Assembly (NCBI RefSeq): GCF_056746865.1
Contig: NZ_CM163382.1
DNA length: 64,000 nucleotides
Strand: one strand, 5' to 3'
Part shown: piece after piece, positions 14,230-64,000 of the stretch
Layout: every line of letters starts with the position of its first letter
Position numbering within the stretch: position 1 is the first letter of the stretch
Position numbers and translations under genes: made by a program
Notes under the pieces: model-generated
The model's database searches: none
What the model saw: only the letters and a program-made list of their open reading frames with translations
Told to the model about the DNA's origin: nothing

Positions 14230-14253
14230 ATGGTGTCCTTAGGTTTCACGACG

Positions 14254-14676: not shown

Positions 14677-15306
14677 TTATGCCCACTCATTTTTTAACGC
14701 TTGATGATGCAGCTGCAGCCATTGCAAAGCGATGACCGACGCTGCGTTGTCGATTTTCCCCTCTTCTACCCACTGGTATGCCTGTTCCCGGCTTACCACA
14801 TGAACGCGAATATCTTCGTTTTCATCAGCCAGACCGTGAATACCGCTTGCGGTCGTGGCGTCCACTTCGCCCACCATAATTGACGAACGCTCACTGGTGC
14901 CCCCCGGGCTTGCCAGGAAACTTAACACCGGTTTGGTCCGTTTGACTATCAGTCCCGCCTCTTCAATCGCTTCGCGACGGGCAACATCTTCCACACTTTC
15001 ACCCTCTTCAATCATCCCGGCAACCATCTCCAGTAGCCAGGGGGTTTCGCTGGTGTCGTACGCGGCAATCCGAATCTGCTCAATCAGCACAACTTCATCA
15101 CGCACTGGGTCAAAGGGTAGCAAGACTGCGGCGTGACCGCGCTCAAAAATTTCCCGCCGTACCTCATGACTCATTTGCCCGTTGAATAGACGATGACGAA
15201 ATCTATAAAGATCTAATGAAAAAAAGCCGCGATAAAGTGTTTCTCGTGCAATAATTTCTACATCGTTTTTGCCAAATGTAACGGGCAGGTTGTCTGGCTT
15301 AAGCAT
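14677..15306 (-). CDS. nudF: ADP-ribose pyrophosphatase (Nudix)
   Basis: 209 aa; Nudix box [23 protein letters not shown]. Confidence 0.9.
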
Positions 15307-15407
15307 TGTTAATGTCCTGGCACTAATAGTGAATTAAATGTGAATTTCAGCGACGTTTGACTGCCGTTTGAGCAGTCATGTGTTAAATTGAGGCACATTA
15401 ACGCCCT

Positions 15408-15426
15408 ATGGCACGTAACGCCAACC
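15408..15426. promoter_or_regulatory. Candidate mar/sox/rob box in tolC promoter
   Basis: ATGGCACGTAACGCCAACC about 85 bp upstream of tolC ATG; resembles the marbox consensus (GCAC...AAA-type); identification from memory, not computed. Confidence 0.4.
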
Positions 15427-15510
15427 TTTTGCGGTAGCGGCTTCTGCTAGAATCCGCAATAATTTTACAGTTTGATCGCGCTAAATACTGCTTCACCACA
15501 AGGAATGCAA

Positions 15511-16992
15511 ATGAAGAAATTGCTCCCCATTCTTATCGGCCTGAGCCTTTCTGGGTTCAGTTCGTTGAGCCAGGCCGAGAACCTGATGCAAGTTTATCAG
15601 CAAGCACGCCTTAGTAACCCGGAATTGCGTAAGTCTGCCGCCGATCGTGATGCTGCCTTTGAAAAAATTAATGAAGCGCGCAGTCCATTACTGCCACAGC
15701 TAGGTTTAGGTGCAGATTACACCTATAGCAACGGCTACCGCGACGCGAACGGCATCAACTCTAACGCGACCAGTGCGTCCTTGCAGTTAACTCAATCCAT
15801 TTTTGATATGTCGAAATGGCGTGCGTTAACGCTGCAGGAAAAAGCAGCTGGGATTCAGGACGTCACGTATCAGACCGATCAACAAACCTTGATCCTCAAC
15901 ACCGCGACCGCTTATTTCAACGTGTTGAATGCTATTGACGTTCTTTCCTATACACAGGCGCAAAAAGAAGCGATCTACCGTCAATTAGATCAAACCACCC
16001 AACGTTTTAACGTGGGCCTGGTAGCGATCACTGACGTGCAGAACGCCCGCGCACAGTACGATACCGTGCTGGCGAACGAAGTGACCGCACGTAATAACCT
16101 TGATAACGCGGTAGAGCAGCTGCGCCAGATCACCGGTAACTACTATCCGGAACTGGCGGCGCTGAATGTCGAAAACTTTAAAACCGACAAACCACAGCCG
16201 GTTAACACGCTGCTGAAAGAAGCCGAAAAACGCAACCTGTCGTTGTTACAGGCGCGCTTGAGCCAGGACCTGGCACGCGAGCAAATTCGCCAGGCGCAGG
16301 ATGGTCACTTACCGACTCTGGATTTAACGGCTTCTACCGGGATTTCTGACACCTCATATAGCGGTTCGAAAACCCGAGGTGCCGCTGGTACCCAGTATGA
16401 CGATAGCAATATGGGCCAGAACAAAGTTGGCCTGAGCTTCTCGCTGCCGATTTATCAGGGCGGAATGGTTAACTCGCAGGTGAAACAGGCCCAGTACAAC
16501 TTTGTTGGTGCCAGCGAGCAACTGGAAAGCGCGCATCGTAGCGTCGTACAAACCGTACGTTCCTCCTTCAACAACATTAATGCTTCTATCAGTAGCATTA
16601 ACGCCTACAAACAAGCCGTAGTTTCCGCTCAAAGCTCATTAGACGCGATGGAGGCGGGCTACTCGGTCGGTACGCGTACCATTGTTGATGTGTTGGATGC
16701 GACCACCACGTTGTACAACGCCAAGCAAGAGCTGGCGAATGCGCGTTATAACTACCTGATTAATCAGCTGAATATTAAGTCAGCTCTGGGTACGTTGAAC
16801 GAGCAGGATCTGCTGGCACTGAACAATGCGCTGAGCAAACCGGTTTCCACTAATCCGGAAAACGTTGCCCCGCAAACGCCGGAACAGAATGCTATTGCTG
16901 ATGGTTATGCGCCTGATAGCCCGGCACCCGTCGTTCAGCAAACATCCGCACGCACTACCACCAGTAACGGTCATAACCCTTTCCGTAACTGA
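15511..16992 (+). CDS. tolC: Outer membrane channel TolC
   Basis: ORF trimmed to MKKLLPILIGLSLSGFSSLSQA signal peptide; 493 aa; unmistakable TolC sequence. Confidence 0.95.
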   Translation: MKKLLPILIGLSLSGFSSLSQAENLMQVYQQARLSNPELRKSAADRDAAFEKINEARSPLLPQLGLGADYTYSNGYRDANGINSNATSASLQLTQSIFDMSKWRALTLQEKAAGIQDVTYQTDQQTLILNTATAYFNVLNAIDVLSYTQAQKEAIYRQLDQTTQRFNVGLVAITDVQNARAQYDTVLANEVTARNNLDNAVEQLRQITGNYYPELAALNVENFKTDKPQPVNTLLKEAEKRNLSLLQARLSQDLAREQIRQAQDGHLPTLDLTASTGISDTSYSGSKTRGAAGTQYDDSNMGQNKVGLSFSLPIYQGGMVNSQVKQAQYNFVGASEQLESAHRSVVQTVRSSFNNINASISSINAYKQAVVSAQSSLDAMEAGYSVGTRTIVDVLDATTTLYNAKQELANARYNYLINQLNIKSALGTLNEQDLLALNNALSKPVSTNPENVAPQTPEQNAIADGYAPDSPAPVVQQTSARTTTSNGHNPFRN

Positions 16993-31293: not shown

Positions 31294-34134
31294 TCATTCT
31301 TCCACCAGCCACTTCTGCCAGCTTGCCCGCACCAGTTCACGCTCTGCGGTGAAGCAATCCTCCGACACATGGCCCGGCAATTCCTGTAATGCCAGATGAT
31401 GAAGTTCATCGCGCAGCGTCGTGTAAGCACGGGTCAGCGCCATCGCTTCCTGCTCTTCCATAATGTCGTTTTGCGCCAGTAGTTCCAGAATGCGCACGTT
31501 GTCTGACCAGCGCGTTAACTTCGGTTTTTCATGAGCGTAGCGCAACACCAGATATTGAGTAATAAATTCGATATCGGTAATTCCGCCTTCATCGGCTTTG
31601 ATATCAAAGCGATCGCGATGTTTATTGCCGAGATGGGCACGCATTTTCTCGCGCATTTCCCGCACTTCTGTTTGCAGGGTTTTGCCTTCGCGCGGCAGCG
31701 TCATAATCTCCCGGCGTACTGCGTCAAAGTGCGCGGTGAGCTGCGGATCGCCGTACACTACACGCGCACGCACCAGCGCCTGATGTTCCCACGTCCAGGC
31801 CTCGTTTTTCTGATAATCGGCAAACGCTTCTGCGGAGGTAACCAGCATTCCCGCCGCCCCGGACGGACGCAGTCTAGCATCCACTTCATACAAAATGCCG
31901 GAAGAGGTTCGCGTACTGAACAGATGCATAATGCGTTGCGCCAGACGCAGATAAAACTGTCGCCCGTCGATTTCCCGCTCGCCGTCAGTCATCGCATCCA
32001 TTGGGCAATCATGGAGGAAGATCAGGTCAAGATCGGAACTGTAGCCTAACTCCCAGCCGCCCAGCTTGCCGTAGCCGACCACCGCAAAACCACGCCCTTC
32101 GCGTTCGTTCAGGTGATTTGGCTTACCGTAGCGGACAACCATTTGAACCCACGCCTGCTGAACGACGGCATCTATCATAGCCTCCGCCAGCCAGGTTAAG
32201 TGATCGCTCACTTTCATTACCGGTAGCGTACCGGCGATATCCGCTGCCGCAATACGTAACAGTTGCGCCTGTTTGAACTGACGCAGCGCCTCAAGCTGTT
32301 GTTCTTCGTCATCTTCCGGCACGCGCAGCAAATACTGGCGCAGTTCATCACGGTAGGCATCCGTCGCCGTCGGCTGGTAGAGAGTGTTTGGATCGAGCAG
32401 TTCGTCCAGCAATAATGGATAACGCGCCAGTTGGCTGGCAATCATCGGCGATGCGGCACACAGAGAAATCAAATGTTTAAGCGCCGCGGGGAATTCACTG
32501 AGCAATTCTAAATAGGTGGTGCGGGTAACAATCCCCACCAGCAAGGCGGTAATGCGCGACAGCGTGACAGCAGCGTCTTCACGCGCACATACATCACTTA
32601 GCAGATGCGGCATCAGATGGTCGAGCACCTGACGCCCGCGCGGCCCAATAGTGCGCTTATCCAGCTCTTTGCGGAAATCAGCAATCAGCGTCAGCACCTG
32701 TTTGCGATCATCTTCGCTAAGATGCGCCAGCACTGGCGTAGTGTCATCTTCCTGCAACGCATCCTGCCACAGCTCACGCCACTGTTCCGACAGCGACTCT
32801 TCCTGAGTTTCGCTTTCGTCGTCGCCAATCAATTCATTAAACACCCGGCGCACATTGGTCATATGTACGGTCAGCGCCCCGGTCAGTTGCGGCCAGTCAG
32901 CAAAGTCCATCGCCCACGCCAGCCGCGCACGGTTAAGCTCATCAGAAGGAAGCGTCTGGGTTTGTTCGTCGTTAATACTTTGCAGCAGGTTTTCCAGACG
33001 CCGCAGGAACAGATACGCCACTCGCAATTGTTCAGCATCGTTTTCAGAAAGCAGATGCAGCGCGGCAATGGCGCTGAGCGTTGGCAGTAAAGAGCGCGAT
33101 TGCAGCGACGGTTCGCGCCCGCCGCGAATGAGCTGGAATACCTGGACGATAAATTCAATTTCGCGAATGCCACCCGCGCCAAGTTTGATGTTGTCGGTCA
33201 AACCACGTCGACGCACTTCGCGGGCAATCATCCCTTTCATATTGCGCAGCGACTGGATGACGCTGAAATCGATGTAACGGCGGAAAACAAACGGGCGCAG
33301 CATCGCACGCAACTCGTTAGCATAGACGCCTTCGCTATCGCCCATAATCCGCGCCTTGACCATCGCGTAACGCTCCCAGTCGCGCCCCTGCTCCTGGTAA
33401 TAATCTTCCAGCGCCGCAAAGCTCAGCACCAGCGGGCCACTTTCGCCAAACGGACGCAGCCGCATATCCACGCGATAGACGAAGCCATCCTGCGTTGGTT
33501 GATCCAGCACTTTAATCAGCCGCTGCCCCATGCGGGTAAAAAACTGCGCGTTATCCAGTTCCCGGCGTCCGCCCTGCGTACAACCATGTTCTGGCCAGGC
33601 AAAAATCAGATCGATATCTGAGGAGAAATTCAGTTCCCCACCGCCCAGCTTACCCATGCCTAAAATCAGCAGCGGTTGCGCTTCGCCCTGCGCATTGCAC
33701 GGCGTTCCCCACTCGCGGCAGCAAGCGTCATACAGCCAGTCACGCGCCGCAACAATCAGCGTCTCCGCCAGATGGCTGAGCTGCTGCAATATGCTCTCTT
33801 CAGTAACCAGTGCCAGCGTTTGCGCCCAGGCGATGCGCACCATAATGCGCCGCCGGAATAGCCGCAGTTCACGCATTAACCCGGCTTCGTCACTCACATT
33901 ACTGAGCGCCTCCTGCAACCAGGCAGCGTAATGCTGCCATTCGTCGGCCTGCGGCGGCTGGCTTTGCAGTTCCGTCAGCCACTCTGGATGCGCAATTACG
34001 CTGTCCTGCACAAAATCACTGAAAGTAAGTACTGACTTCGCCTGTGCGCTAAGTGATTCCTCGGCTAAAGGCTCTGGCAGCCGCTCAACAACGGTCTGCC
34101 AGTACTGCTGTAACGGTGAAGAGAGCGGCTTCAT
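31294..34134 (-). CDS. glnE: Glutamine synthetase adenylyltransferase/deadenylase
   Basis: ORF 31294..34338 trimmed to [21 protein letters not shown] giving 946 aa. Confidence 0.9.
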
Positions 34135-49878: not shown

Positions 49879-50003
49879 ATTTACTCCTTTCTAACATCAC
49901 CAGGAAAAGTATAACGGATTGAAAATACATTGTTTATAAAAACAGCAGGCGCGCGGTAATGGCTGGATTGCGACACGGAGTTACTTTATAATCCGCTACC
50001 ATG

Positions 50004-50078
50004 GCCCCTTAGCTCAGTGGTTAGAGCAGGCGACTCATAATCGCTTGGTCGTTGGTTCAAACCCAACAGGGGCCACCA
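50004..50078 (+). tRNA. ileX: tRNA-Ile (anticodon CAU; lysidine-modified Ile2 type)
   Basis: GGCCCCTTAGCTCAGTGGTTAGAGCAGGCGACTCATAATCGCTTGGTCGTTGGTTCAAACCCAACAGGGGCCACCA; cloverleaf with CAT anticodon in loop CTCATAA; encoded CCA. Confidence 0.9.
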
Positions 50079-50088
50079 TACACAACAA

Positions 50089-50121
50089 AGGGTTAGCTAA
50101 TAAACCAGCTAACCCTTTTTC
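50089..50121 (+). terminator. tRNA-Ile intrinsic terminator
   Basis: AGGGTTAGCT-AATAAACC-AGCTAACCCT followed by TTTTTCTTTTT. Confidence 0.65.
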
Positions 50122-50176
50122 TTTTTCCTTTGAATTGGGTCAGGTAATGGGTCAGGTAAGCTTTTTTCCATCTGAC

Positions 50177-51022
50177 TCAGATGGCTGATAATTGTCCCGG
50201 ATAACGCTTTGCAATGATGTCATTTAGCCGATCAACCAGTTCTGGTTTTCTGAATGTGATATGCGCGGAGCCCTTCTTAAAGTATCTGATGCTGAACATC
50301 TCATCTTCATAGCTCTCTTTACCCTGAACAGACTGAATGTGCTCATCCAGACGAATAGTGATGTTTTCCCGATTGTCGGGGATTGGTTTACCGCTGAACA
50401 GGTGCAACATTCTTTCCAGATCGGCGAGTCGGTCAGCCTGTTGTCCGGTGATAAGATGAAATCCCCACCGGTCCCATCTCACCAGATTGTTGACGATAAT
50501 TTTACTGCCAAATTTACAGGGGCAATTGGTTTTGTAATTCCAGTTCAGCCCTCTGAAGACGTTGATCACCCCTCGCTCAAACACCTCATCCTTATTCTGG
50601 TGCAGTTGTTCAAATGTGCTCAGGATGTTCGCTTCGCTGATTTCCGGAAAATTATCGTACTCCAGTGACCGGTACCATGTCTCACGGGCCTGTGCATCCA
50701 TTAAGGAAAGCATCCCGGAACGTTGCATCAAGTCACGCCAGATTTCACGATCGAGATTGTGTGTGATGGCTTTCATTGCCGTTTCAGGTTTCTCCATGAG
50801 CCAGCAGCCACAGCGAAAATCCTGTTTCATCGCCCAGTCCAGTGCGGTTTTACCGCCAATACTTTCTGTCATTGCTGAGATTTCAGCCAGTTGCCGGATA
50901 AGTGTGTTGATTTGCAGCAGTGTACTTTTTCGTACAGCCAGAATGTGGCGGATACTGGTTGAGCAGATAACGTCCGTATGCCCGTTGACTACTTCCGGAC
51001 GGGAGGCTGTGATATCAGACAT
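50177..51022 (-). CDS. Uncharacterised island protein (281 aa; possibly DUF4942 family)
   Basis: Long clean ORF at tRNA-proximal end of island; family assignment from memory only. Confidence 0.55.
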   Translation of the reverse strand: MSDITASRPEVVNGHTDVICSTSIRHILAVRKSTLLQINTLIRQLAEISAMTESIGGKTALDWAMKQDFRCGCWLMEKPETAMKAITHNLDREIWRDLMQRSGMLSLMDAQARETWYRSLEYDNFPEISEANILSTFEQLHQNKDEVFERGVINVFRGLNWNYKTNCPCKFGSKIIVNNLVRWDRWGFHLITGQQADRLADLERMLHLFSGKPIPDNRENITIRLDEHIQSVQGKESYEDEMFSIRYFKKGSAHITFRKPELVDRLNDIIAKRYPGQLSAI

Positions 51023-51118
51023 AATCGATATTCCTTTTTGCAGATAAATGAAAACGCCAGCCCTGTTCAGGCTGGCGTCAGTGGAATGAAGTCTGGTGAG
51101 TGAGATGATGAGTGAAAC

Positions 51119-51316
51119 TCACCGGTTCGGGGGCTGAAGCTGCAGTTGGCGCAGGGTACGGATATCCTCCCTGGCCTGTTCAATACAGGACAACAGGGCT
51201 GTCGAATCCGTTTTATCCTCATCGTTGTCAAAGATAATTCCGGATTCACAGTCGATATTGTCCTGCAGCCACGCAATCAGAATATCCAGCGCTGTTTCCG
51301 TGGTTAATGATTTCAT
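51119..51316 (-). CDS. Small uncharacterised island protein (65 aa from MKSLTTET; possibly DUF957)
   Basis: ORF 51119..51361 trimmed to internal Met to avoid overlap with upstream ORF; acidic small protein. Confidence 0.4.
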   Translation of the reverse strand: MKSLTTETALDILIAWLQDNIDCESGIIFDNDEDKTDSTALLSCIEQAREDIRTLRQLQLQPPNR

Positions 51317-51327
51317 GTTGTTTCTGG

Positions 51328-51816
51328 TTACCAGTCGAAAGTGGGTAAATCCGGCAGACACCCGGCGCTGGCATCCAGATGAATAAGACTGACGCCATAA
51401 CGCCGGATGAGAGTGACAACCAGACGGCGGAAGGTTTTTGACAGGCCCAGACGTTTAAGGTGTAGCACCGGATACGACAAAGCATCGGTACGTAACAGAT
51501 ACCCTCTGCCTGTAAAATGAATCCATTCTGATTCGCCGGTGTCATTCGTCTGATGCGACAGCGAGTACAGCCAGGTGTTGTCCGTTTCCGTGATATGTGC
51601 GGTACTGCAGCGTATGCCGGTAAGGGCAGCAAATGGTGGCGTGCAGTCTGCTGAGGTCCGGTCAGATTCATCAACAACACGAAGGGAGTAGCCGTTATCG
51701 CAGATCATGTTAATCAGTTCAGCGAGATTAACACCATCAATGTCAACGACAATTCGCCCCATATTCAGTGCCTGTACGTTAACGCTGTCGGCTTCCAGTG
51801 TCAGGGTCAGTTGCAT
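51328..51816 (-). CDS. YeeW-like uncharacterised protein downstream of cbtA
   Basis: 162 aa ORF immediately after cbtA stop, position equivalent to yeeW in CP4-44. Confidence 0.45.
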
Positions 51817-52190
51817 CGTTTCGACTCCTGATGCTTACCCAGGGTAATGTTATTTACCGTTCTGTAATTGTCGCGGGTCATCAGGCCGGTTGCCCGGCGA
51901 GCCCGGAGAATATCAATACTGTTTATTAACTGAGAGCGGGTACAGGCGCTGAATCCCGGCTGGTCGGTACGTACCAGTGCGTATTTTTCAACGAGAAAGT
52001 TCACCGCATCGCACAGTGAAATGCCTGCCTCAATATGCTGCTCAATCACACGTTCATCAGCGAACGGTGTGTCATTCAGCGTAAGGCCGTAATGCTGGTC
52101 CAGCAGTCGGGTGAGCAGTGTCTGCCAGATTTCAACCGGAGACGGGCGTGAACTGGCCGCCTGCCCGGGTAATACAGGTAATGTTTTCAT
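51807..52190 (-). CDS. cbtA: CbtA/YeeV-family type IV toxin (cytoskeleton-binding toxin)
   Basis: ORF trimmed to [23 protein letters not shown]...; family conserved sequence. Confidence 0.8.
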
Positions 52191-52279
52191 ACTGAAGATT
52201 TTCCTGATATGCAGAGATGAAAAATGGAAAAGTGGCGTGGTGAAAGCACCAGGCCGGAGCAGAAGGTTATTCTGGATAG

Positions 52280-52648
52280 TTACCTTTTCGTTTCGGGCGT
52301 CGGATAAACAGCCATATAAACGTAGCCACAACTGCCGAGGGTGTCGGCTTCGCAGGTCAGCCCTTTTGCATACAGCGTGACGGTATGCTGATGGCGGGAA
52401 TTCAGTTCACCGCTGGTGAGCATGAGTTCCAGTTGTTTCATCAGCAGCGGAAAGGCCTGGTCCAGGTGGTACGAATCCGCGTCGCTGAACCGGCCTCTGA
52501 TACCGGCGCGGTCGGCAAGGTAATGCAACCGGTTGCCCTCCTGCACCAGACGGGCGCCAAAACAAGGTGTCACGGTACAGGGCAGCCCCCACCAGGGGCG
52601 GTCGTGATTGTCATCGGGATGCGTTGTCCCGGGCAGTGTGTCTGACAC
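52280..52648 (-). CDS. cbeA: CbeA/YeeU-family antitoxin
   Basis: 122 aa; [48 protein letters not shown]. Confidence 0.8.
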
Positions 52649-52727
52649 AATAAAATCCTCACAGAAAATTGGTTAAGAATGGTCCGGTGGTGGCGATAAT
52701 TCTGCTCTTCTGAATGCCCTTCCGGAC

Positions 52728-52949
52728 TCAGTTCAGGGTGACGCTCATCAGCCGGACATACGGACCAAAACTGTCCTTACGGCGTTCTGCAAACACAGCC
52801 AGCACACCGGGAATATCCTGCACTTCACGGCCGGTATATGTATCCGTGCTACCGTGCCAGCGGTATTTGCCGGTACAGAACGGAAAAAGACGGGATGCCG
52901 GATGTTGTTGGTGAATACGCATGGCTTCACCACGGGTGATGATTTTCAT
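52728..52949 (-). CDS. YeeT/DUF987 protein
   Basis: 73 aa; MKIITRGEAMRIHQQHPASRLFPF; conserved partner upstream of cbeA. Confidence 0.7.
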   Translation of the reverse strand: MKIITRGEAMRIHQQHPASRLFPFCTGKYRWHGSTDTYTGREVQDIPGVLAVFAERRKDSFGPYVRLMSVTLN

Positions 52950-53017
52950 GGTGTGATACCTCTTAAGACAGAAGATAAAAGTGAAAACAGGTGTGATGTG
53001 GTGGTGACGGTGACGGG

Positions 53018-53494
53018 TTAAAGCAGACCGTGTTCCGCAAAGGAGAAAACCTGGCTGCCACCGACTATCAGATGGTCCGGTACCCGGATATCCACCAGGC
53101 CCAGTGCCTGTACCAGACGTTCCGTGATAAGGCGGTCTGCCTTGCTGGGTGTGACTTCACCGGACGGGTGATTGTGTGCCAGCACCACGGCAGCGGCATT
53201 GTGGTACAGGGCACGTTTAATCACTTCCCGGGGATGGACTTCCGTGCGGTTGATGGTGCCGGTGAAGAGGGTTTCACCGGCAATCAGCTGATTCTGGTTG
53301 TTCAGATACAGCACCCGGAACTCTTCCCGCTCCAGTCCCGCCATGTTCAGAATCAGCCACTCCCGTGCCGCATGCGTGGAGGTGAAGGCCACGCCGGGTT
53401 CATGAAGATGGCGGTCCAGGGTTTTCAGGGCCCGCTGAATGAGGCTGCGCTCGCCGGGCGTCATCTCTCCGGGCAGAAAAGAAAGCTGTTGCAT
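53018..53494 (-). CDS. RadC-like JAB-domain protein (YeeS/YfjY family)
   Basis: 158 aa; JAMM motif HNHPSGEVTPSKAD. Confidence 0.85.
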   Translation of the reverse strand: MQQLSFLPGEMTPGERSLIQRALKTLDRHLHEPGVAFTSTHAAREWLILNMAGLEREEFRVLYLNNQNQLIAGETLFTGTINRTEVHPREVIKRALYHNAAAVVLAHNHPSGEVTPSKADRLITERLVQALGLVDIRVPDHLIVGGSQVFSFAEHGLL

Positions 53495-53508
53495 TGTTCC
53501 GGCCCCTT

Positions 53509-53994
53509 TCAGTCAATGATGCGCATAATGGCGTTGCATTCCGGATGCTGCAGGGCGTAATCCCGCAGCCGGTAATAATGGACCGTCATGGCATAACACT
53601 CCGTACGACAGGCATGATGGCTGTACGTCATCAGACAGGCAGCAATGCCGGCGGCTTCCGGGCTCATTTCAGCGCGGTTACCGTTCATGGCACTGAACAG
53701 TACCCATGTTTCGTCATCATCGTCATCCGGTTCGGGTGCCATAAATGCCCCGCCGTTGTTCAGGGTGTACAGATTCCAGATACCACCACAGTAGTCTTCG
53801 CACAGACGATCCATCCAGCCGAAGACACGGGGCTCCAGGGTCACCCACTGTGGAATGAGGCCAAAATGCTGCGGCCAGAAGCTGATGCGCTGTTCATCAG
53901 GGACGAGGGTGGCAACCAGTTGAGGCGGGTTATTCTCTGATACAGCGGTTACGGAAACAGAAGGTGTGGTGGAATTATGCAAAACGGTTGTCAT
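53509..53994 (-). CDS. Antirestriction protein (ArdB/KlcA/YfjX family)
   Basis: 161 aa; family-typical C-terminal region; position upstream of radC-like gene as in CP4-57 yfjX. Confidence 0.7.
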   Translation of the reverse strand: MTTVLHNSTTPSVSVTAVSENNPPQLVATLVPDEQRISFWPQHFGLIPQWVTLEPRVFGWMDRLCEDYCGGIWNLYTLNNGGAFMAPEPDDDDDETWVLFSAMNGNRAEMSPEAAGIAACLMTYSHHACRTECYAMTVHYYRLRDYALQHPECNAIMRIID

Positions 53995-54084
53995 GAGATT
54001 ATTCCTTATAAAAAGTAAATGAATGGAAGAAGTCGCGGGGCAGGGACGGACATGAGTCAGAACTGCGCTTTCAGGGAAAAGGCA

Positions 54085-54903
54085 TCAGCGCATACTCTTC
54101 AGCAGTGTTTCTGCCATCACCCACAATGCGCGATTGAGCTTAATGTCGGTGTCGATGCTGTGAATGGCACGGGTATGGATACGTTTTCCTCTGGCACTGC
54201 GACCGGAAATCCCGCCTTTCAGCATATTCTCCTGGATGGTCTGATAAGCACTCCACAGGTCCTTACCGTAATCCTCCCGGCGTCGCGGTGTCAGAATGTC
54301 AGCAGCGGTGACGGGCTGATGTTCGTCACCATAACGGTAAGTCAGTGCCGCCTGTGCCAGCGCCTGGCGTGCCGGTGGCGGCAGGACCAGCGACTGCATG
54401 GCATCACGCTTCTCCTCAATCCGGTCAAAAACCCCCACCACCTCGTAAGCCCCTTCGATAACTTTCTCCACTACGTCTCCCCGGTGTGGAACACGCACTT
54501 CCCCCAGAGACTGACCACAGACGCATCCGTTCTGGCAGACGAACCTGAAGTAACCCGGCAGCATCTGGTAGCTGGAGGTACCGTCATGGGAGTTCAGCAG
54601 GATGATTTCAGGGACATGTTGTCCGTTTATCTCCCCGTCACGGCGCAGACGCAGCATGTGTTTGGTGTATCCCCGGCGGCCCGGGTCGCGCACGCGGGTC
54701 TGGCAGGCGAAGAATGGCTGGAAGCCTTCCCGCTGCAGGCTTTCCAGCACGGTGATGGTGGGGATCCAGGTATAGTTCTCGCTTCTGGATGTGTGTTTCT
54801 CTTCCCCGAATACGCTGGGGACGACCTGCATCAGTTCTTCACGGGTTAAGGGGCGGTCACGGCGTATCTGGTTCGCATAACCAAAACGACTGGCTAATCG
54901 CAT
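54085..54903 (-). CDS. DUF932 protein (YfjQ/YafZ family)
   Basis: 272 aa; MRLASRFGYANQIRRDRPLTREELMQVVPSVFGEEKH. Confidence 0.75.
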   Translation of the reverse strand: MRLASRFGYANQIRRDRPLTREELMQVVPSVFGEEKHTSRSENYTWIPTITVLESLQREGFQPFFACQTRVRDPGRRGYTKHMLRLRRDGEINGQHVPEIILLNSHDGTSSYQMLPGYFRFVCQNGCVCGQSLGEVRVPHRGDVVEKVIEGAYEVVGVFDRIEEKRDAMQSLVLPPPARQALAQAALTYRYGDEHQPVTAADILTPRRREDYGKDLWSAYQTIQENMLKGGISGRSARGKRIHTRAIHSIDTDIKLNRALWVMAETLLKSMR

Positions 54904-55174
54904 GATTTATTCCTTATGAATGAGTTAGCGGTGTAAATGAAAAAGCCGCGTCTCCCGGAGAAGACGCGGCCTGATGGACGAAATGAATGACGTTTATTGT
55001 CTGAGAAGCCCTTCACTGGCGAGCTGCGTATTTTTATGGAAGGAGATCACCCAATAACCCCATCGGGATCGGGCAATAACCGGCCAAATTGTGAACGATT
55101 CAGATGCCATTTGGCAGCAAAAGAGCCTTCGGCAATAAACGTGATGTACAACCCGGCATATCTGTTGCTCCCTG

Positions 55175-55207
55175 AAAGTAAAAAGCCCCGGTCATTATGA
55201 CCGGGGC
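55175..55207 (-). terminator. Ag43 intrinsic terminator
   Basis: GCCCCGGTCAT-TATGACCGGGGC hairpin followed on minus strand by TTTTTACTTTC. Confidence 0.6.
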
Positions 55208-55229
55208 CTGAAGGGGAGTGACCTGATTA

Positions 55230-58076
55230 TCAGAAAGTCACATTCAGCGTGGCCTGACCGTTATAGCCTTCAGCGCTGTTGCCGCTGACACTGTGGGCAT
55301 AACCGGCCTGAACGCCCAGAGTGATATTTTCCCGGACACGGGCTTCCAGTCCGGCCTGCAGGTCCAGTGACGTGCCATTCTGTGACGGTGAGAACGTCAT
55401 GTTACTGCCGGCTTCAGCTGTACCCATGCTCATGTCACCCCGGGAGCTGAAAGTGCGGATAACAGAAGGCTGTACCCACCAGTTCACCGGCAGTTCACTC
55501 ACACGGTGTTTTGTACTGTCGCGCAGAGTGTCACGGGATGAGGTGCCTTCGCCAAAGGTCATATCGTTGTGGCTGCCCAGACGGAAGCCGGCACGCACAT
55601 GTTGTGTACTGCCATGCCCGAACTTCACATAACCGGCGTTATCCTGGCCGTCATCCAGGGAGAGCCCCTGCCAGGTGTACTGCAGTTGTGGCTCCAGCAT
55701 CAGGTTGTCAGTGATACTGAAGGGCAGACCGGTTTCCAGTGAGCCCAGCCAGCCCCAGCCCCGGGCGCGGAAGTCGTTATTGTCCGATGACGCTTTCATG
55801 CTGTGGCGGGTTCCCTGTGCCACAATGTCAGCCCACAGGCCGGAGGACGTGTGTGTCAGATTCAGGTATCCGCCCAGGCTGCCGGCATCATCCCGGACTG
55901 TGCCGGCGCGGGAACCGTCATCATCCTTAACATCAACGGAAGAATGACCTGCAGCACCATACACCCCTGTCGTCAGAGACATACCTGCAACCTCTGTTCT
56001 CAGCAGGTCACCCTCCAGACGGACGAAGCCATAGCTGCCGCTGCTTTCCGGCGTGGCTCCACGGGCAATACCGCCGTTGTTATCGTGACCGAGATGACCG
56101 CCCTGAATGCTGAGACGGACGCTGTTATTTTCACCGTTTACACCGGTCTGATGGCTGCGGGAGCCTGCCAGAATCCGGTCATAGTCCATTGCCTGTGTCA
56201 GCATGGAGGCATACAGGGGGACTTCAGCACGATAAGCATTTTCACTGCGCAGGTACCAGTCTTCATCGCTGTCACGGTTCAGGGTGTAGTTAAAGGCACC
56301 GGCCTGAAGCGGGCGACTCAGGGCAAACGCACCTTCTTCTGTGGTGGCACCATTCTGTGCATCCACAACCCGGATACCCTGTCCGGAGGTTGCCACCCCG
56401 AGGTTACTGTTTCCGACATTTGTGAACGCAAGCCAGGTTTTGCCGGTTGCCTGACCACCATTAATCACCAGCTGGTCAGAGGCATTGCTGCCATCAAGGC
56501 GAACACGCATATTGATGGTGCCACCCTGACCGGTGAGGTTACTGGTTGTCAGTTTATGGAACGTTACCGGGGCGTTGCCTTTTGCAACAGCACGGCTCAG
56601 TATGGCATCCGGTGTTGTCTGATTGTCAAAGTAAATCTCCCCTGCGTTAACAATATCGCCGGTACTGACCACATCACCATTCAGTACCATGCTGGCGCCT
56701 TTACTGAGCTGTGTTCTGCCACTCAGACTTCCCCCGGCAGCCAGCATCAGTGTTCCACGATGTCCGACAGTGGTGTTGCCAGCCTGTCCCCCGGCATTAA
56801 CCGTAAAGCTGCCGCCATTTTCCAGCAGCAGGCCGCTGGCCTGACCGGATATGCCATCAATACTGAACTTACCGCTGGCATTGGTCCCCTCAACAGTGGC
56901 ACCACTGTCTGCAATCAGGGCACCACCGGATGTCATGGTGACACCTGTCGCCTTACCACCGGCAGACACTGCCAGGGTTCCGCCGTCATCCACCCGTGTT
57001 TTCTGCGCTGAATGGCCCTCCAGTACATCCAGGCGACCGCCGGACTCCAGAACAACACCGTCAGCCTTACCGTTTTCCACCGTGAAATTCCCCAGACGGT
57101 TGCTGCCGGTGACGGTTGCCGCCGTACTGGTGACCAGTGCGCCGCCCTGCTTCAGGGTGACATTCGTGGCTGTACCACCGGCGTTCACCTGCAGTTTGCC
57201 TTTCTGGTTAACGGTGGAGAAATCCGCCAGACCACCTTCCTTGATAATCTGCCAGCCGTCACTGTTTACAACAGTGCCAGACGCCGTACCGCCGTTGTGC
57301 ACATACTGGTACCCCCCATTCAGCGTGGTATCCAGTGCGTGACCATGTACAGTCTGGTCGCCGCCGGCATAAACCACAGTGGTATTTGCCGTTCCTTCAG
57401 CAGCCACAATCTGACGACCATTTTTATTGATGGTGGTGCGTACGGCATCTCCGTAGACGGTCTGCCCGGTATCACCATTTTCTGCATCCGGTCCCCCTTC
57501 CGCGCCGGTATTCACAACCGTGTCGGTTGCCATTGCGCCGGATTTGACGGCCTGCCAGCCCTTCTCATTAATGACGGTACCCGTTGCAATCCCGCCTTCA
57601 TGTATCCACTGCTCACCGCCGTTCAGAGTGGTGTTCACTGCCTGCCCCTGAAGGCTCTGTCCGCCTCCGGCACTGATAACCGTGTCTGAAACGCTTCCTC
57701 CGGCATTCACTCTCTGAAGACCACCACCGGTGACAGTAGTGTTGTTGGCGGTACCGCCATTTTGTATCCATTGGCCGCCGGTATTCGCCTCGTTATCCGG
57801 CCCATACTCCAGCCCGGTACTGATGGTCATTCCGTTGGCCGTACCGAAGACAATCTGGTTGTCATGATTTGTCAGTGTTCCGCCGCTCACGGTTTCTCCC
57901 GCCTGTACGACCGTGTCAGCAGCCAGTACCGGGACTGACGTGACAGCAGCAAGAGACAGCGCAACCGCCACACCGGTGCGTTTTCCCCGTGAGCGCGCCA
58001 GTTCGGAAGCCACCACCAGGGTGCCCGTAATGTGATTCCATACCAGCCTGTAGCTGGTGTTCAGATGTCGTTTCAT
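55230..58076 (-). CDS. flu: Antigen 43 self-associating autotransporter adhesin (short ~950 aa variant)
   Basis: ORF trimmed to MKRHLNTSYRLVWNHITGTLVVASELARSRGKR extended signal peptide; beta-helical passenger repeats; C-terminal beta-barrel ending ...YNGQATLNVTF. Confidence 0.9.
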   Translation of the reverse strand: MKRHLNTSYRLVWNHITGTLVVASELARSRGKRTGVAVALSLAAVTSVPVLAADTVVQAGETVSGGTLTNHDNQIVFGTANGMTISTGLEYGPDNEANTGGQWIQNGGTANNTTVTGGGLQRVNAGGSVSDTVISAGGGQSLQGQAVNTTLNGGEQWIHEGGIATGTVINEKGWQAVKSGAMATDTVVNTGAEGGPDAENGDTGQTVYGDAVRTTINKNGRQIVAAEGTANTTVVYAGGDQTVHGHALDTTLNGGYQYVHNGGTASGTVVNSDGWQIIKEGGLADFSTVNQKGKLQVNAGGTATNVTLKQGGALVTSTAATVTGSNRLGNFTVENGKADGVVLESGGRLDVLEGHSAQKTRVDDGGTLAVSAGGKATGVTMTSGGALIADSGATVEGTNASGKFSIDGISGQASGLLLENGGSFTVNAGGQAGNTTVGHRGTLMLAAGGSLSGRTQLSKGASMVLNGDVVSTGDIVNAGEIYFDNQTTPDAILSRAVAKGNAPVTFHKLTTSNLTGQGGTINMRVRLDGSNASDQLVINGGQATGKTWLAFTNVGNSNLGVATSGQGIRVVDAQNGATTEEGAFALSRPLQAGAFNYTLNRDSDEDWYLRSENAYRAEVPLYASMLTQAMDYDRILAGSRSHQTGVNGENNSVRLSIQGGHLGHDNNGGIARGATPESSGSYGFVRLEGDLLRTEVAGMSLTTGVYGAAGHSSVDVKDDDGSRAGTVRDDAGSLGGYLNLTHTSSGLWADIVAQGTRHSMKASSDNNDFRARGWGWLGSLETGLPFSITDNLMLEPQLQYTWQGLSLDDGQDNAGYVKFGHGSTQHVRAGFRLGSHNDMTFGEGTSSRDTLRDSTKHRVSELPVNWWVQPSVIRTFSSRGDMSMGTAEAGSNMTFSPSQNGTSLDLQAGLEARVRENITLGVQAGYAHSVSGNSAEGYNGQATLNVTF

Positions 58077-58293
58077 CAGCTTTTCCTTACAGAGGGTGAA
58101 TAAAAAAGCCGGTACCCACAAATGTGGATACCGGCAGGTACAAAACAGCATGGTCAGATAAAGTGGTTTTTCCCGGACATAAATGCTTCCCCTCTCTCAT
58201 CCGCCAGAGAAGTATCAGTCCGTTGTGTGCAATTCCGTTCTGCATGATGAAGAGATTCAACTGCCTTTTCGCAGGCCATTAACCACTATAAAC

Positions 58294-58329
58294 GATCGAT
58301 AGTAACGATCGATACCTGTTTTATTGATC
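58294..58329. promoter_or_regulatory. Three clustered Dam GATC sites (Ag43 phase-variation switch / OxyR operator)
   Basis: GATC at 58294, 58307 and 58326 within 36 bp (AACGATCGATAGTAACGATCGATACCTGTTTTATTGATCG) ~220 bp upstream of Ag43 start. Confidence 0.7.
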
Positions 58330-58448
58330 GTTTTATTCTATTGATTGCAAGGCGGTCACGCAAGAGAAACAGGAGGATCATGAGGTGTTTGTGTCATGTT
58401 TTCAGTTGGTTAACGCAATGTAATCAGGCATTTCCCCTGGCAGACTGT

Positions 58449-59321
58449 TCAGAAGAAAATCCAGTTCCATACAGCGCGGGCAACAGAGACCACCGAGTCA
58501 CGGACGGCACGCAGAACCGTGCGTGCAACAGAGGCAATACAGACGCTCTCCGCCGTGTCAAATATCCGGTCCACCGCACCGGTAAACTGTTCACGGGCCT
58601 GAGACCGGACAGATTCCGTGCGCAGCTCGTCCTGCAGGCGGGTCATCAGGGGACTGGCGGCATGGTCGGGAAGCGCTGTCATGAGCGCACTGACCAGCGT
58701 ATCCAGTTCCCAGCCGGTGCAGGCCGATACGGCCACAACCGGATGTACGGGTCGGAACAGCCGGAATACCGCATCTGTTTTCTCACGAATGTTCTGTGCC
58801 TGTGCGGGAGAAGGCTGAATGCCGGCCATATCCCATTCATGGCAGGGCTCCGTTTTGTCGGCCTGCGTCACCACAAACAGTACCCGCTGATGTCCCCGGT
58901 GCAGGATGTGTCGCCAGAAATACTCATCCACAGACAGGGCACGGTCATCGGCTTTAATCAGCCACAGTACCAGGTCAAGTTCAGGCAGAATGTTACGGTA
59001 CAGGGCTTCATACTCTGCATCCCTGTCCCGGCTCTCGCCCACCCCGGGCAGGTCAGTGATAATCATGCTGTGACCGTGGCCACTCAGACGGAAGCGCTGC
59101 ACTTCCCGGGTGCCGGCGTGAACATCACTGACCGGTGTGACTTCCCCCTGAAACAGCGCATTACAGAGTGAGGATTTACCGGCCCCGCTTTTACCCATAA
59201 TGCCAATCACGGGTTCGTGGCTGGTGAGTTTACGCAGATGTTCCAGGATGTGACGGGAAAGCGAATAAGGCAGGGAGGAGAGCGGTTTTTCAATTGCCTC
59301 AATGGCATCAGACGGATTCAT
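58449..59321 (-). CDS. YfjP/YeeP/YkfA-family GTPase
   Basis: P-loop GKSGAGKSS, G3 DLPG, G4 TQADK; start taken at MNPSDAIEAIEK (ORF extends to 59360). Confidence 0.75.
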   Translation of the reverse strand: MNPSDAIEAIEKPLSSLPYSLSRHILEHLRKLTSHEPVIGIMGKSGAGKSSLCNALFQGEVTPVSDVHAGTREVQRFRLSGHGHSMIITDLPGVGESRDRDAEYEALYRNILPELDLVLWLIKADDRALSVDEYFWRHILHRGHQRVLFVVTQADKTEPCHEWDMAGIQPSPAQAQNIREKTDAVFRLFRPVHPVVAVSACTGWELDTLVSALMTALPDHAASPLMTRLQDELRTESVRSQAREQFTGAVDRIFDTAESVCIASVARTVLRAVRDSVVSVARAVWNWIFF

Positions 59322-59584
59322 ATATGTATTCCCGGTGAAAAAAGACAAAACCCCGCGCACCGGAAAGGTGGCGGGGGATTCACGGAGATAATATCTGTCT
59401 GAAATTATTTAGAATGCACCTGGTGCACTGCAAAGGAAAGGCAGTATTCCGTTCCTCCTCCTTGTCGTGAATACCCCAGGTATCTCACAATGTACACCGA
59501 CTTACTCCGGGGCTGCCTGAACCACAAGATTGCTGTAGAATTGCCCCCAATGATTCAGGTCCAAACCAGGCAAATGGATTAAAA

Positions 59585-61141
59585 ATGACAAGTATTCAAC
59601 AACGAGCAGAACTGCACCGCCAGATATGGCAAATTGCCAATGATGTCAGAGGTTCTGTTGACGGATGGGATTTTAAGCAATACGTTCTGGGCGCACTTTT
59701 CTACCGTTTTATCAGCGAAAATTTTTCCAGTTATATTGAAGCCGGTGATGACAGTATCTGTTATGCGAAACTGGATGACAGCGTAATTACTGATGACATT
59801 AAAGACGATGCCATCAAAACTAAAGGCTACTTCATCTACCCCAGTCAGCTTTTCTGCAACGTAGCGGCGAAAGCAAATACTAATGACAGGCTGAATGCAG
59901 ATTTAAACAGCATCTTCGTTGCTATCGAAAGTTCTGCTTACGGTTATCCTTCAGAAGCTGACATCAAAGGTTTGTTTGCTGATTTCGATACCACCAGTAA
60001 CCGCCTGGGTAACACCGTTAAGGATAAAAATGCCCGCCTGGCTGCGGTTCTGAAAGGGGTTGAAGGGTTAAAACTTGGTGACTTCAACGAACATCAGATT
60101 GACCTGTTCGGTGATGCCTATGAGTTCCTGATTTCTAACTATGCGGCAAATGCCGGTAAGTCAGGCGGTGAGTTCTTTACACCGCAGCACGTCTCCAGGC
60201 TGATTGCACAACTGGCTATGCACGGGCAGACCAGCGTTAACAAAATCTACGACCCGGCAGCGGGTTCCGGCTCACTGTTGTTGCAGGCGAAAAAACAGTT
60301 TGATAACCACATCATCGAAGAAGGCTTTTTCGGTCAGGAAATCAACCATACGACCTATAACCTGGCGCGTATGAACATGTTTTTGCACAACATCAACTAC
60401 GACAAGTTTGATATCAAGCTGGGTAATACACTGACTGAGCCACACTTCAGAGATGAAAAACCGTTTGATGCCATCGTTTCTAACCCGCCGTATTCGGTGA
60501 AATGGATTGGCAGCGATGACCCGACGCTGATTAACGATGAACGTTTTGCCCCGGCTGGCGTTCTGGCCCCCAAATCAAAAGCTGACTTCGCCTTTGTACT
60601 ACATGCGCTGAACTATCTTTCTGCCAAAGGTCGCGCCGCGATTGTCTGCTTCCCGGGTATTTTTTACCGTGGCGGCGCGGAGCAGAAAATCCGTCAGTAT
60701 CTGGTCGATAATAACTATGTCGAAACCGTGATTTCACTGGCACCGAACCTGTTCTTTGGCACCACCATTGCCGTCAATATTCTGGTGCTGTCTAAACATA
60801 AAACGGATACCAAAGTTCAGTTTATTGACGCCAGCGAACTGTTCAAAAAAGAGACTAATAACAACATCCTGACCGATGCTCATATCGAACAGATTATGCA
60901 GGTATTTGCCGGCAAGGAAGATGTTGCTCATCTGGCGAAATCTGTCACGTTTGAGACTGTTGTCGCGAATGACTATAACCTGTCGGTGAGCAGCTATGTG
61001 GAAGCGAAAGATAACCGCGAAGTGGTGGACATTGCTCAGCTCAACGCCGAGCTGAAATCTACTGTCGCCAGGATTGACCAGCTTCGCAGGGATATTGATG
61101 CCATCGTCGCTGAAATTGAAGGCGAGGAGCAGGAGGCATGA
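59585..61141 (+). CDS. hsdM: Type I restriction-modification methyltransferase subunit HsdM (type IC, EcoR124-like)
   Basis: 518 aa; SAM-binding DPAAGSGS and catalytic NPPY motif; overlaps hsdS by 4 nt. Confidence 0.9.
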
Positions 61142-62343
61142 GTAGCGTGAACTTCTTGGAAAAGCTGTTGGATGGCGTTGAGGTCGAGTGGAAGACACTT
61201 GGGCAAACTTGCAAAATTGAAACAGGAAAGCTTAATGCGAATGCGGCTGTTGATGATGGAGAGTATATGTTCTTCACGACAGCCAAAGAGACAAGCAAAA
61301 TTGATAAATTCCGCTGGGATACAGAGGCATTGCTGATTGCAGGCAATGCGAATGTTGGTGAGGTGAAGCATTACATCGGCAAGTTTGAGGCTTATCAGCG
61401 CACCTATGTTCTGACAAATTTCGACGAAAATGTAAGTGTTAGATTTTTGTATTTTGTGCTTAGCCATAGCCTGAAGAAATATCTCGAGGAAAGAACAAAT
61501 AGCGCGGCAATGACATATATCGTGCTATCAACCTTAGAGAATTTCCCTATCCCCATCCCCTGCCCAGGCAACCCCCAAAAATCCCTTGCCATCCAGTCTG
61601 AAATCGTTCGGATTCTGGATAAATTTACTGCACTTACCGCTGAGCTTACCGCTGAGCTTAACATGCGTAAAAAACAGTACAACTACTATCGCGACCAGTT
61701 GTTGAGTTTTAAAGAGGGTGAGGTTGAGTGGAAGACTTTGGGGGAAATTGGAGATTTTACATATGGATATGCAGCCAAAGCCATGGATTCAGGAGATGCC
61801 CGTTTCGTGAGAATTACTGACATAAATAAAGACGGGAAGCTATCGAAAGAAAACCCAATGTACGTTGAATTAAATGAGGAAAATGAGAAATATACCTTAG
61901 ACAAAAATGATTTACTCATGGCAAGAACTGGGGCAACCTTTGGTAAAACAATGATTTTTGAAGAAGATTATCCAGCAGTATACGCTGGTTTTTTAATAAA
62001 GTTGAACCTAAATAAAACGATTATTAATGCCAAATATTACTGGCACTTTGCACAAAGTGATTTTTTTTGGGAACAGGCTAATAAATTAGTATCTGGTGGT
62101 GGGCAACCACAGTTTAATGCTAATGCACTGAAACAAGTCAGAGTACCTATTCCATACCCATCTCACCCTCAAAAATCTTTAGACGAACAGGGGCGTATTG
62201 TGGATATTCTGGATAAGTTTGATGCAATCGCAGCTTCCATCACCGAAGGTCTCCCGCGTGAAATCGAGTTACGTCAAAAACAATACGAATACTATCGTGA
62301 TTTACTGCTCAGTTTCCCAAAACCTGAAACTGTCAGTAAATAA
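61138..62343 (+). CDS. hsdS: Type I R-M specificity subunit HsdS (type IC)
   Basis: 401 aa; two TRDs separated by central conserved region with TAELTAEL repeat and conserved KKQYxYYRDxLLSF blocks after each TRD. Confidence 0.85.
61627..61659 (+). repeat. Tandem 12-bp repeat (ACCGCTGAGCTT x2, preceded by partial ACTGCACTT) encoding TAEL-TAEL in hsdS
   Basis: Direct reading of hsdS codons 164-174: [11 protein letters not shown]. Confidence 0.8.
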
Positions 62344-62464
62344 TTGACCATTGCTACCGACCGGGCCTCCTTAACATCCGGTCAGTATATAGACTATTTT
62401 TTACGCGCCGGAAGTCACTCTTAACGCCCTTCCGGCTCTTGCCAGGCGGCACAAAGGATGCGCT

Positions 62465-64000
62465 ATGACTCATCAAACACACACCATTGCTGAATCCAAT
62501 AACTTTATCGTCCTTGATAAGTACATCAAAGCTGAGCAAACAAGCGACAGCTACCAGAGCGAATCGGACCTGGAACGTGAACTGATTCAGGACCTGCGGA
62601 ATCAGGGTTATGAATTTATTTCCGTAAAATCACAGTCGGCAATGCTGTCTAATGTTCGGGAACAGCTTCAGAGCCTCAATGGTGTGATGTTTAATGACAG
62701 CGAGTGGCGGCGCTTCACGGAGCAGTATCTGGACAACCCCAGCGATGGTATTCTGGATAAAACCCGTAAAATCCATATCGACTATATCTGCGACTTTATT
62801 TTTGACGACGGGCGACTTGAGAACATCTATTTGATAGATAAAAAGAATCTCATGCGCAATAAGGTGCAGATTATCCAGCAGTTTGAACAGACGGGTTCTC
62901 ATGCTAACCGTTATGACGTCACGATCCTGGTTAATGGTTTACCGCTGGTGCAAATCGAACTAAAAAAACGCGGGGTGGCGATTCGTGAGGCTTTCAACCA
63001 GATACATCGTTACAGTAAAGAGAGTTTTAACAGCGAAAATTCCCTGTTTAAGTATCTGCAACTGTTTGTCATTTCTAACGGCACCGATACCCGTTATTTT
63101 GCCAACACGACAAAGCGCGATAAAAACAGTTTTGACTTCACCATGAATTGGGCGAAATCAGACAACACGCTGATTAAAGACCTCAAAGACTTTACCGCTA
63201 CCTTTTTCCAGAAACATACTCTGCTGAATGTTCTGGTGAACTACAGCGTTTTTGACAGTAGTCAGACGCTACTGGTGATGCGACCGTACCAGATTGCCGC
63301 CACCGAGCGCATTCTGTGGAAAATTAAGAGTTCCTTTACAGCGAAGAACTGGTCAAAACCGGAAAGCGGTGGGTATATCTGGCACACTACCGGTTCTGGT
63401 AAAACCCTCACCAGCTTTAAAGCCGCGCGTCTGGCAACAGAGCTGGACTTTATTGATAAAGTCTTCTTTGTGGTCGACAGGAAAGACCTCGATTACCAGA
63501 CCATGAAGGAATATCAGCGTTTTTCGCCAGACAGCGTCAACGGCTCGGAAAATACCGCAGGCCTTAAACGAAATCTGGATAAGGACGATAACAAAATTAT
63601 CGTCACTACTATTCAGAAACTCAATAACCTGATGAAAGCAGAAAGCGACCTGCCTGTATATAATCAGCAAGTGGTGTTTATATTTGATGAATGCCACCGC
63701 AGCCAGTTTGGAGAAGCGCAGAAAAACCTGAAGAAGAAATTCAAACGCTATTATCAGTTTGGTTTTACCGGCACCCCTATTTTCCCGGAAAACGCCTTAG
63801 GCTCAGAAACAACCGCCAGCGTATTTGGCCGTGAATTGCATTCGTATGTGATTACCGATGCGATTCGTGACGAAAAAGTGCTCAAATTCAAGGTGGACTA
63901 CAACGATGTGCGGCCACAGTTTAAGTCTTTAGAGACAGAAACTGACGAGAAAAAACTGAGTGCGGCTGAAAATCAGCAGGCGTTTCTTCACCCCATGCGT
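62465..64000 (+). CDS. hsdR: Type I restriction endonuclease subunit HsdR (type IC), 5' portion only, truncated by window end
   Basis: In-frame translation [20 protein letters not shown]...; helicase motif I TGSGKT and motif II DECH; open to window end (not in ORF track because no stop). Confidence 0.9.

Follow-up and report, generated by a model that had tools for sequence, protein, structure and literature searches.

The ardB gene and its island

The DNA analyzed here is a stretch of 64,000 nucleotides (the window) from contig NZ_CM163382.1 of the NCBI RefSeq assembly GCF_056746865.1. Positions 1-50000 are E. coli core chromosome, with mug, rpoD and dnaG located to the left of the tRNA gene ileX. 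Beyond ileX lies a genomic island, and its features are collected in Table 1. An antirestriction gene (ardB) and the type I restriction-modification genes hsdM, hsdS and hsdR are both found beyond the ileX boundary and therefore belong to the same island, as a preliminary description of this DNA had claimed.

Table 1. Features of the window from the island boundary to its right-hand end, in order of position.
Feature	Coordinates	Strand	Evidence or remark
tRNA-Ile(CAT), ileX	50003-50078	+	Attachment site, left island boundary
DUF4942	50177-51022	-	RefSeq annotation of 99.9%-identical DNA
DUF957	51119-51316	-	RefSeq annotation of 99.9%-identical DNA
DUF5983	51328-51816	-	RefSeq annotation of 99.9%-identical DNA
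CbtA toxin	51807-52190	-	RefSeq annotation of 99.9%-identical DNA
CbeA/YeeU antitoxin	52280-52648	-	RefSeq annotation of 99.9%-identical DNA
DUF987	52728-52949	-	RefSeq annotation of 99.9%-identical DNA
RadC/JAB-domain gene (yfjY/lfgB-like)	53018..53494	-	TIGR00608, E=1e-43; 78% identity
ardB	53509..53994	-	ORF list, Pfam, PDB match; 161 aa, pI 4.65
DUF932 gene (yfjQ-like)	54085..54903	-	75% identity to K-12 YfjQ
DUF905 gene, 3' remnant (...LASEGLLRQ, then stop)	54915..55025	-	In-frame reading; DUF905 annotation in other genomes
Ag43/Cah autotransporter adhesin gene (cargo)	55230..58076	-	
YeeP/YfjP-like GTPase gene (backbone)	58449..59321	-	Divergent from hsdM, gap 263 bp
hsdM, type IC	59585..61141	+	TIGR00497, E=2e-194; 97.5% identity to EcoR124 M subunit (residues 1-515)
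hsdS, type IC frame	61138..62343	+	Conserved N-terminal, central (two TAEL repeats) and C-terminal regions
hsdR, first 511 of 1038 codons	62465..64000	+	98.4% identity to EcoR124I HsdR (residues 1-511)

The ardB reading frame runs from ATG to TGA over 161 codons, and a ribosome-binding site (AAGGA) lies 7 nt 5' of the ATG. Residues 66-161 of its product match the Pfam model PF03230 'Antirestrict' over positions 1-92 of 92 (E=7.3e-37). In a search of solved structures, the product matched ArdB of E. coli CFT073 (PDB 2WJ9; E=9e-98) and, over residues 26-161, KlcA of plasmid pBP136 (PDB 2KMG; E=5e-20). Four substitutions separate it from 2WJ9 across residues 25-161, which corresponds to 97% identity, and its N-terminal ~24 residues are unlike those of CFT073 ArdB, with a difference that includes a three-residue gap. 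The same 486-bp coding sequence is named 'antirestriction protein' in RefSeq (WP_000214317.1) and is found in several genomes. The full length, the ribosome-binding site and the Pfam and PDB matches rule out a chance open reading frame and, together with the RefSeq coding sequence, argue that ardB is not a pseudogene. This is thus a real and intact ardB gene, and its assignment to the ArdB/KlcA family in the preliminary description is borne out. That description had also allowed for a degraded pseudogene on alignment; what the alignment gives is a full-length protein 97% identical to an active one. An ArdB/KlcA fold is predicted from the near-identity to 2WJ9. The gene is the orthologue of the pathogenicity-island ardB of CFT073 and a paralogue of yfjX (lfgA) and yafX of E. 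coli K-12, with 74% identity between its product and YfjX.

ardB is the second gene of a module transcribed from one strand in the order DUF932, ArdB, JAB/RadC, DUF987, CbeA, CbtA, DUF5983, DUF957, DUF4942, with intergenic gaps of -10 to 96 bp from DUF932 to DUF4942. The DUF932 gene lies directly 5' of ardB at a distance of 90 bp. The RadC/JAB gene follows 14 bp 3' of ardB, and the two are probably co-transcribed. From DUF932 to CbtA, the order is that of the K-12 element CP4-57 (yfjP, yfjQ ... yfjX(lfgA), yfjY(lfgB), ypjJ, yfjZ, ypjF), with protein identities of 74-78%. The module in the window is the known backbone of CP4-57/CP4-6-type elements. No NCBIfam model matched ArdB, DUF932, CbeA or DUF987, which reflects a gap in that library and does not count as evidence against these assignments.

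Upstream of the module, an intrinsic terminator hairpin (54943-54972) follows the DUF905 remnant and stands just 5' of DUF932, at a distance of ~40 nt. The remnant and its terminator form an element of ~100 nt that is kept among islands with differing upstream cargo and occurs at ~10,350 places in E. coli genomes. Rfam returned nothing for this element, even at E<=1. A small RNA or leader 5' of DUF932 was considered and rejected: the fold is that of the terminator, and the element overlaps annotated DUF905 genes in other genomes. A second terminator (55183-55209) stands with the first between Ag43 and the DUF932-ardB operon. On the other side of Ag43, 5' of the gene, a match to the Rfam IS102 RNA was found at 58095-58331 (74 bits). 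The three GATC sites clustered there (58294, 58307 and 58326) are arranged as in the Dam/OxyR switch that controls phase variation of agn43.

The tRNA boundary of the island lies within the window, whereas an integrase and a second repeat would be expected beyond the window end. Both were seen in strain ECOCN22, which carries the same backbone at the same site (ileX). Copies of the tRNA 3' half, a 60-nt repeat with 87% identity, flank the 30.8-kb ECOCN22 island, whose tyrosine integrase end adjoins nfeF/yqjH. The ileX gene carries an island-derived 3' half, with the T-arm GTTGG...CCAAC (window 50003-50078; ECOCN22 locus 1408-1467). At the opposite end of the ECOCN22 island, the chromosomal copy that was displaced has GCTGG...CCAGC (ECOCN22 locus 32238-32297), and the T-stem differences between the two 60-nt repeats are compensatory. 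Just inside the island, beside the tRNA, a tandem GGGTCAGGTAA(T) repeat is found at window positions 50137-50159. In the ECOCN22 locus the repeat occupies 1511-1535 and is present again, identical, at the integrase end (32087-32111); these repeats are plausibly arm-type integrase binding sites.

In strain PEC148, an island 99.9% identical to window positions 50000-64000 is inserted at ileY (locus 2459-2534), beside an alpha-amylase pseudogene. It was rejected as the same locus as the window, which has the ileX version, the one found in ECOCN22. The mug-ileX-DUF4942 junction of that version is present in 344 genomes. Either the element uses both of the identical tRNA-Ile(CAT) genes, or it has moved between ileX and ileY by recombination.

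The type IC cassette and its distribution

The restriction-modification genes are arranged in the order hsdM-hsdS-hsdR, with an overlap of 4 bp between hsdM and hsdS and a gap of 121 bp between hsdS and hsdR. The preliminary description had called the system type IC, and the identities of HsdM (97.5%) and HsdR (98.4%) to EcoR124I agree with this. It had also placed an intact hsdMSR 5 kb from ardB. The system is real, and hsdM starts 5.6 kb from the start of ardB; the intactness of hsdR, however, is not demonstrable from a window that ends at codon 511 of 1038. Up to that end (64000), hsdR is open over all 511 codons and contains the nuclease (D...ELK), GSGKT and DECH motifs, and in islands 97-99.9% identical (PEC148, ECOCN22) it is full-length at 1038 aa. 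Compared with EcoR124, HsdS has an identical central region (including TAELTAEL) and an identical C-terminal region, and its N-terminal region is nearly so. Both target-recognition domains are unlike those of EcoR124I, and a specificity other than that of EcoR124I would therefore be expected. The two TAEL repeats imply a predicted spacer of 6 bp. Judged from its sequence, the resident enzyme is a relative of EcoR124. The GC content of the cassette (59585-64000) is 44.7%, compared to 51% for the island segment with the cassette included and 51.3% for the core, and this low value is consistent with a separate foreign origin.

The distribution of the two components was determined across 5426 complete E. 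coli genomes. ardB is present in 4457 of them; the copy number per genome has a median of 3 and reaches 13 at most, and the places are almost all chromosomal (12,508 vs 7 on plasmids). Islands inserted at ileX, at ileY, at serX and near paoD all repeat the order of the ardB module. For the type IC hsdM, 1598 genomes were positive, with 1104 places on chromosomes and 730 on plasmids. In 433 genomes, hsdM adjoins the GTPase gene through the very junction seen in the window, and the gap there is 263 bp in every inspected island. At least 80% of window positions 50000-64000 is held by 299 genomes. The cassette is also known with no ardB in the surrounding 15-20 kb, namely at leuX loci (beside a DUF4942 gene) and on an IncF plasmid beside phd/doc; a different integrative element carries it without ardB in cis. 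These three settings rule out an obligatory linkage between the type IC system and ardB.

How, then, did the two come to share an island? The prevalence of ardB, the shared junction and the presence of the cassette elsewhere without ardB identify ardB as backbone and hsdMSR as cargo. The shared junction between the GTPase gene and hsdM suggests that the pairing arose once and then spread. Nothing points to selection for the pair of ardB and hsdMSR. In all six sampled islands that carry the type IC system, ardB is annotated as intact, which gives no hint of a loss driven by conflict. The preliminary description had treated the co-residence as a puzzle in its own right. It is not special: ardB is backbone in 4457 of 5426 genomes, hsdMSR is cargo, and K-12 itself has two active ardB genes beside EcoKI.

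Altered forms of the cassette were also observed. At the leuX loci of two other strains (13862-16557 and 13863-16557), the type IC cassette abuts DUF4942, the last gene of the backbone module. Nothing else of the ardB module is present there, and the genes farther out encode McrBC or Abi. This arrangement suggests a deletion or recombination inside an ancestral island. Many genomes retain just the first ~156 nt of the type IC hsdM at 85-87% identity (e.g., UTI89, NC_007946.1 1132001-1132156). In at least one genome, such a remnant adjoins a GTPase gene and a fragment annotated as S subunit. The short remnants look like decayed copies of the type IC cassette.

Antirestriction activity and resident expression

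The activity of proteins closely related to the window ArdB has been characterized. ArdB(CFT073), YafX and YfjX were cloned and tested in vivo, with one enzyme per type I family as the target (Serfiotis-Mitsa et al., PMC2836571). ArdB(CFT) was shown to relieve restriction 710-fold for EcoKI (IA), 54-fold for EcoAI (IB), 199-fold for EcoR124I (IC) and 1174-fold for StySBLI (ID), with antimodification values of 2.0, 1.8, 1.3 and 6.0, respectively (PMC2836571 Table 2). For the same four enzymes, antirestriction was 9250-, 27-, 7510- and 1080-fold with YafX and 6160-, 10-, 251- and 1650-fold with YfjX (PMC2836571). Leaky expression alone made ArdB(CFT) effective against EcoR124I (PMC2836571).

Further properties of the family are known from more distant members. 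ClpXP has been shown, for KlcA, to be dispensable for antirestriction. ArdB(R64) inhibits type IA, IB and IC enzymes in vivo, including EcoR124II and whatever the recognition site; BREX and type III systems are not inhibited, and the protein is proposed to act by blocking translocation by HsdR (PMC10149784). In vitro, ArdB(R64) completely inhibited the enzyme BlihIA. The control was a mutant lacking the conserved D141, for whose inactivity earlier work was cited (PMC12429846). As expected of a family member, the window ArdB is small and acidic (161 aa, pI 4.65), and its C-terminus (...RIID) aligns with that of KlcA (...RAID), so that the C-terminal Asp is placed opposite the KlcA Asp. This residue was compared via the KlcA alignment, and the D141 numbering is that of ArdB(R64), known from the paper.

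These results bear on two points of the preliminary description. Its statement that ArdB proteins inhibit type I restriction in vivo is well documented (PMC2836571; PMC10149784). Its suggestion that the protein may be inert against type IC enzymes appears unlikely, since the 97%-identical ArdB(CFT073) acts 199-fold against EcoR124I and ArdB(R64) inhibits EcoR124II. The argument is one of analogy: the enzyme assayed in PMC2836571 is ~98% identical to the resident R and M subunits. The expression in trans that had been proposed as a check has been published for the 97%-identical protein against EcoKI and EcoR124I. Like CFT073 ArdB, the window ArdB would be expected to relieve type I restriction with little effect on modification.

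Activity at sufficient dose leaves the matter of how much ArdB a resident gene supplies. The tester strains used for these assays were K-12 derivatives, in which restriction by EcoKI or EcoR124I exceeded 7,000-fold until ardB was supplied from a plasmid (PMC2836571). With the tester strains assumed to keep yafX and yfjX (CP4-6, CP4-57), we infer that resident ardB expression in K-12 is probably low. MqsA represses the K-12 yfjX operon (lfgABCDE), and H2O2 led to its induction in single-cell subpopulations only (PMC10846083). YfjX was also recovered once in a screen for proteins translocated into recipients via the secretion system of the F plasmid (PMC11288057), which is a lead and not a finding. 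In the window, a scan for the sigma-70 consensus found no promoter-like site on the - strand from 50000 to 59700, and a search for a single-strand (Frpo-like) promoter found no long imperfect hairpin in 50079-59600. The fold z-scores of a 326-nt spacer, considered as a promoter hairpin, are accounted for by the two terminators.

The explanation that best accommodates these observations, and that we hold to be probably correct, is that of an intact backbone ardB that is weak in residence and useful at entry. In this explanation, the island is a tyrosine-integrase element of the CP4-57/CP4-6 kind, inserted in ileX and with the ardB module at the end nearer the tRNA, and the type IC cassette is independent cargo, a case of hitch-hiking and not of a functional unit. 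In sufficient amount, ArdB would block restriction, and hardly modification, by enzymes of type I families IA-ID, as has been shown for near-identical proteins. It would do so in trans and whatever the recognition sequence, and the working model is an interference with the translocation or cleavage step of HsdR rather than DNA mimicry. Because ArdB acts in trans, its location in the same island as hsdMSR adds nothing mechanistically. The selected role may be to shield the island, or DNA entering alongside it, from the type I enzymes of the recipient in a new cell. In residence, the level of ArdB is probably too low, or reached in too few stressed cells, to put the EcoR124-type system of the island out of action. 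The type IC hsdMSR would have been acquired once in the variable region of the island, beside the yeeP-like GTPase gene, and would then have spread with the island.

The regulation of the K-12 operon can also be read in another way. ardB might be domesticated as part of an lfg-like operon that serves host stress physiology, with its role in restriction lost. The K-12 yfjX-yfjY operon is indeed induced by oxidative stress, and its JAB protease LfgB degrades MqsA (PMC10846083). However, the phenotype of the lfgA (yfjX) deletion was not complementable and was attributed to polarity on lfgB (PMC10846083), and YfjX and YafX retain 6160-fold and 9250-fold antirestriction against EcoKI (PMC2836571). 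In addition, the window ArdB is 74% identical to YfjX vs 97% to the active CFT073 protein. We regard domestication as very unlikely.

A functional pairing of ArdB with the type IC system of its own island appears slight in probability. ArdB would then be an establishment factor acting in cis: on arrival in a naive host, a burst of it would transiently prevent cutting and let methylation proceed until the chromosome of that host is modified. This would agree with the sparing of modification (antimodification of 1.3 for EcoR124I; PMC2836571), with the insensitivity of EcoR124I to control by ClpXP, the restriction-alleviation pathway that protects hosts from type IA/IB systems (PMC3874165), and with the occurrence of the pairing in 433 genomes. 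If true, it would explain the success of the ClpXP-insensitive type IC family inside ardB-bearing islands. However, the junction is identical everywhere and points to a single origin. About 97% of ardB modules have no restriction-modification neighbour (433 junction genomes vs ~12,500 ardB places), and at leuX and on IncF plasmids the cassette is maintained with no ardB in the nearest 15-20 kb. EcoR124I already shows a ClpXP-independent restriction alleviation of its own, which has been attributed to the assembly and disassembly of the complex (PMC3874165).

Constitutive resident ArdB might instead hold the type IC enzyme in an r- m+ state, and the cassette would then serve mainly as a methylase (self-marking or epigenetic) and not as defence. 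The effect of leaky ArdB(CFT) on EcoR124I (PMC2836571) would allow for this, as would the annotation of both ardB and hsdMSR as intact in all sampled islands. The reading is nonetheless very unlikely from what is known of K-12. Its derivatives, assumed to carry chromosomal yafX and yfjX, restrict strongly by EcoKI and EcoR124I (PMC2836571), and repression keeps the K-12 operon down, with only heterogeneous induction (PMC10846083). Moreover, decay would be the expected fate of an hsdR of 1038 aa that is never used, but the sampled genomes have it intact. A degraded or inert ardB pseudogene can be dismissed as next to impossible: the frame has full length and a ribosome-binding site, its product covers the Pfam model end to end and is 97% identical to a protein of proven activity, and the identical RefSeq protein occurs in several genomes.

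Comparison with known systems

The structure of ArdB, the breadth of its activity (all type I families, IC included) and the presence of ardB in E. coli islands have been in the literature since 2010, as has the gene itself. The arrangement of the island is found in hundreds of sequenced genomes, and ardB, the type IC system and their co-residence were thus already known. The level of ardB expression in residence and after transfer is a detail of how mobile islands carry both a weapon and its antidote.

The closest known relative of the window ArdB is that of CFT073 (PAI II ORF14, 2WJ9), with 97% identity over residues 25-161. Both are genes of chromosomal islands. They differ in length (157 aa vs 161 aa in the window protein), and their N-terminal ~24 residues diverge. 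YfjX/LfgA (CP4-57) and YafX (CP4-6) share with the window ArdB the family and the position in the operon, 5' of JAB/RadC, DUF987, CbeA-like and CbtA-like genes. Both of these K-12 proteins are active against EcoKI and EcoR124I, and the genome that encodes them also encodes an active type I system. The K-12 system differs in that EcoKI (type IA) is encoded at a distant locus, whereas the type IC system of the window lies in ardB's own island. KlcA (pBP136) and the plasmid ArdB proteins (pKM101, R64) belong to the same Pfam family and show antirestriction without antimodification, the phenotype predicted for the window ArdB. They differ in being plasmid-borne, in the kor regulon or the leading region, and are distant in sequence. 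An N-terminal extension further distinguishes the E. coli island proteins from KlcA and plasmid ArdB.

The cassette, for its part, resembles EcoR124I/II in the order hsdM-hsdS-hsdR, in HsdM (97.5%) and HsdR (98.4% over residues 1-511), and in an HsdS frame with two TAEL repeats. EcoR124 is carried on an IncFIV plasmid, whereas the system of the window is cargo of a chromosomal island. The recognition domains of its HsdS both differ from those of EcoR124I.
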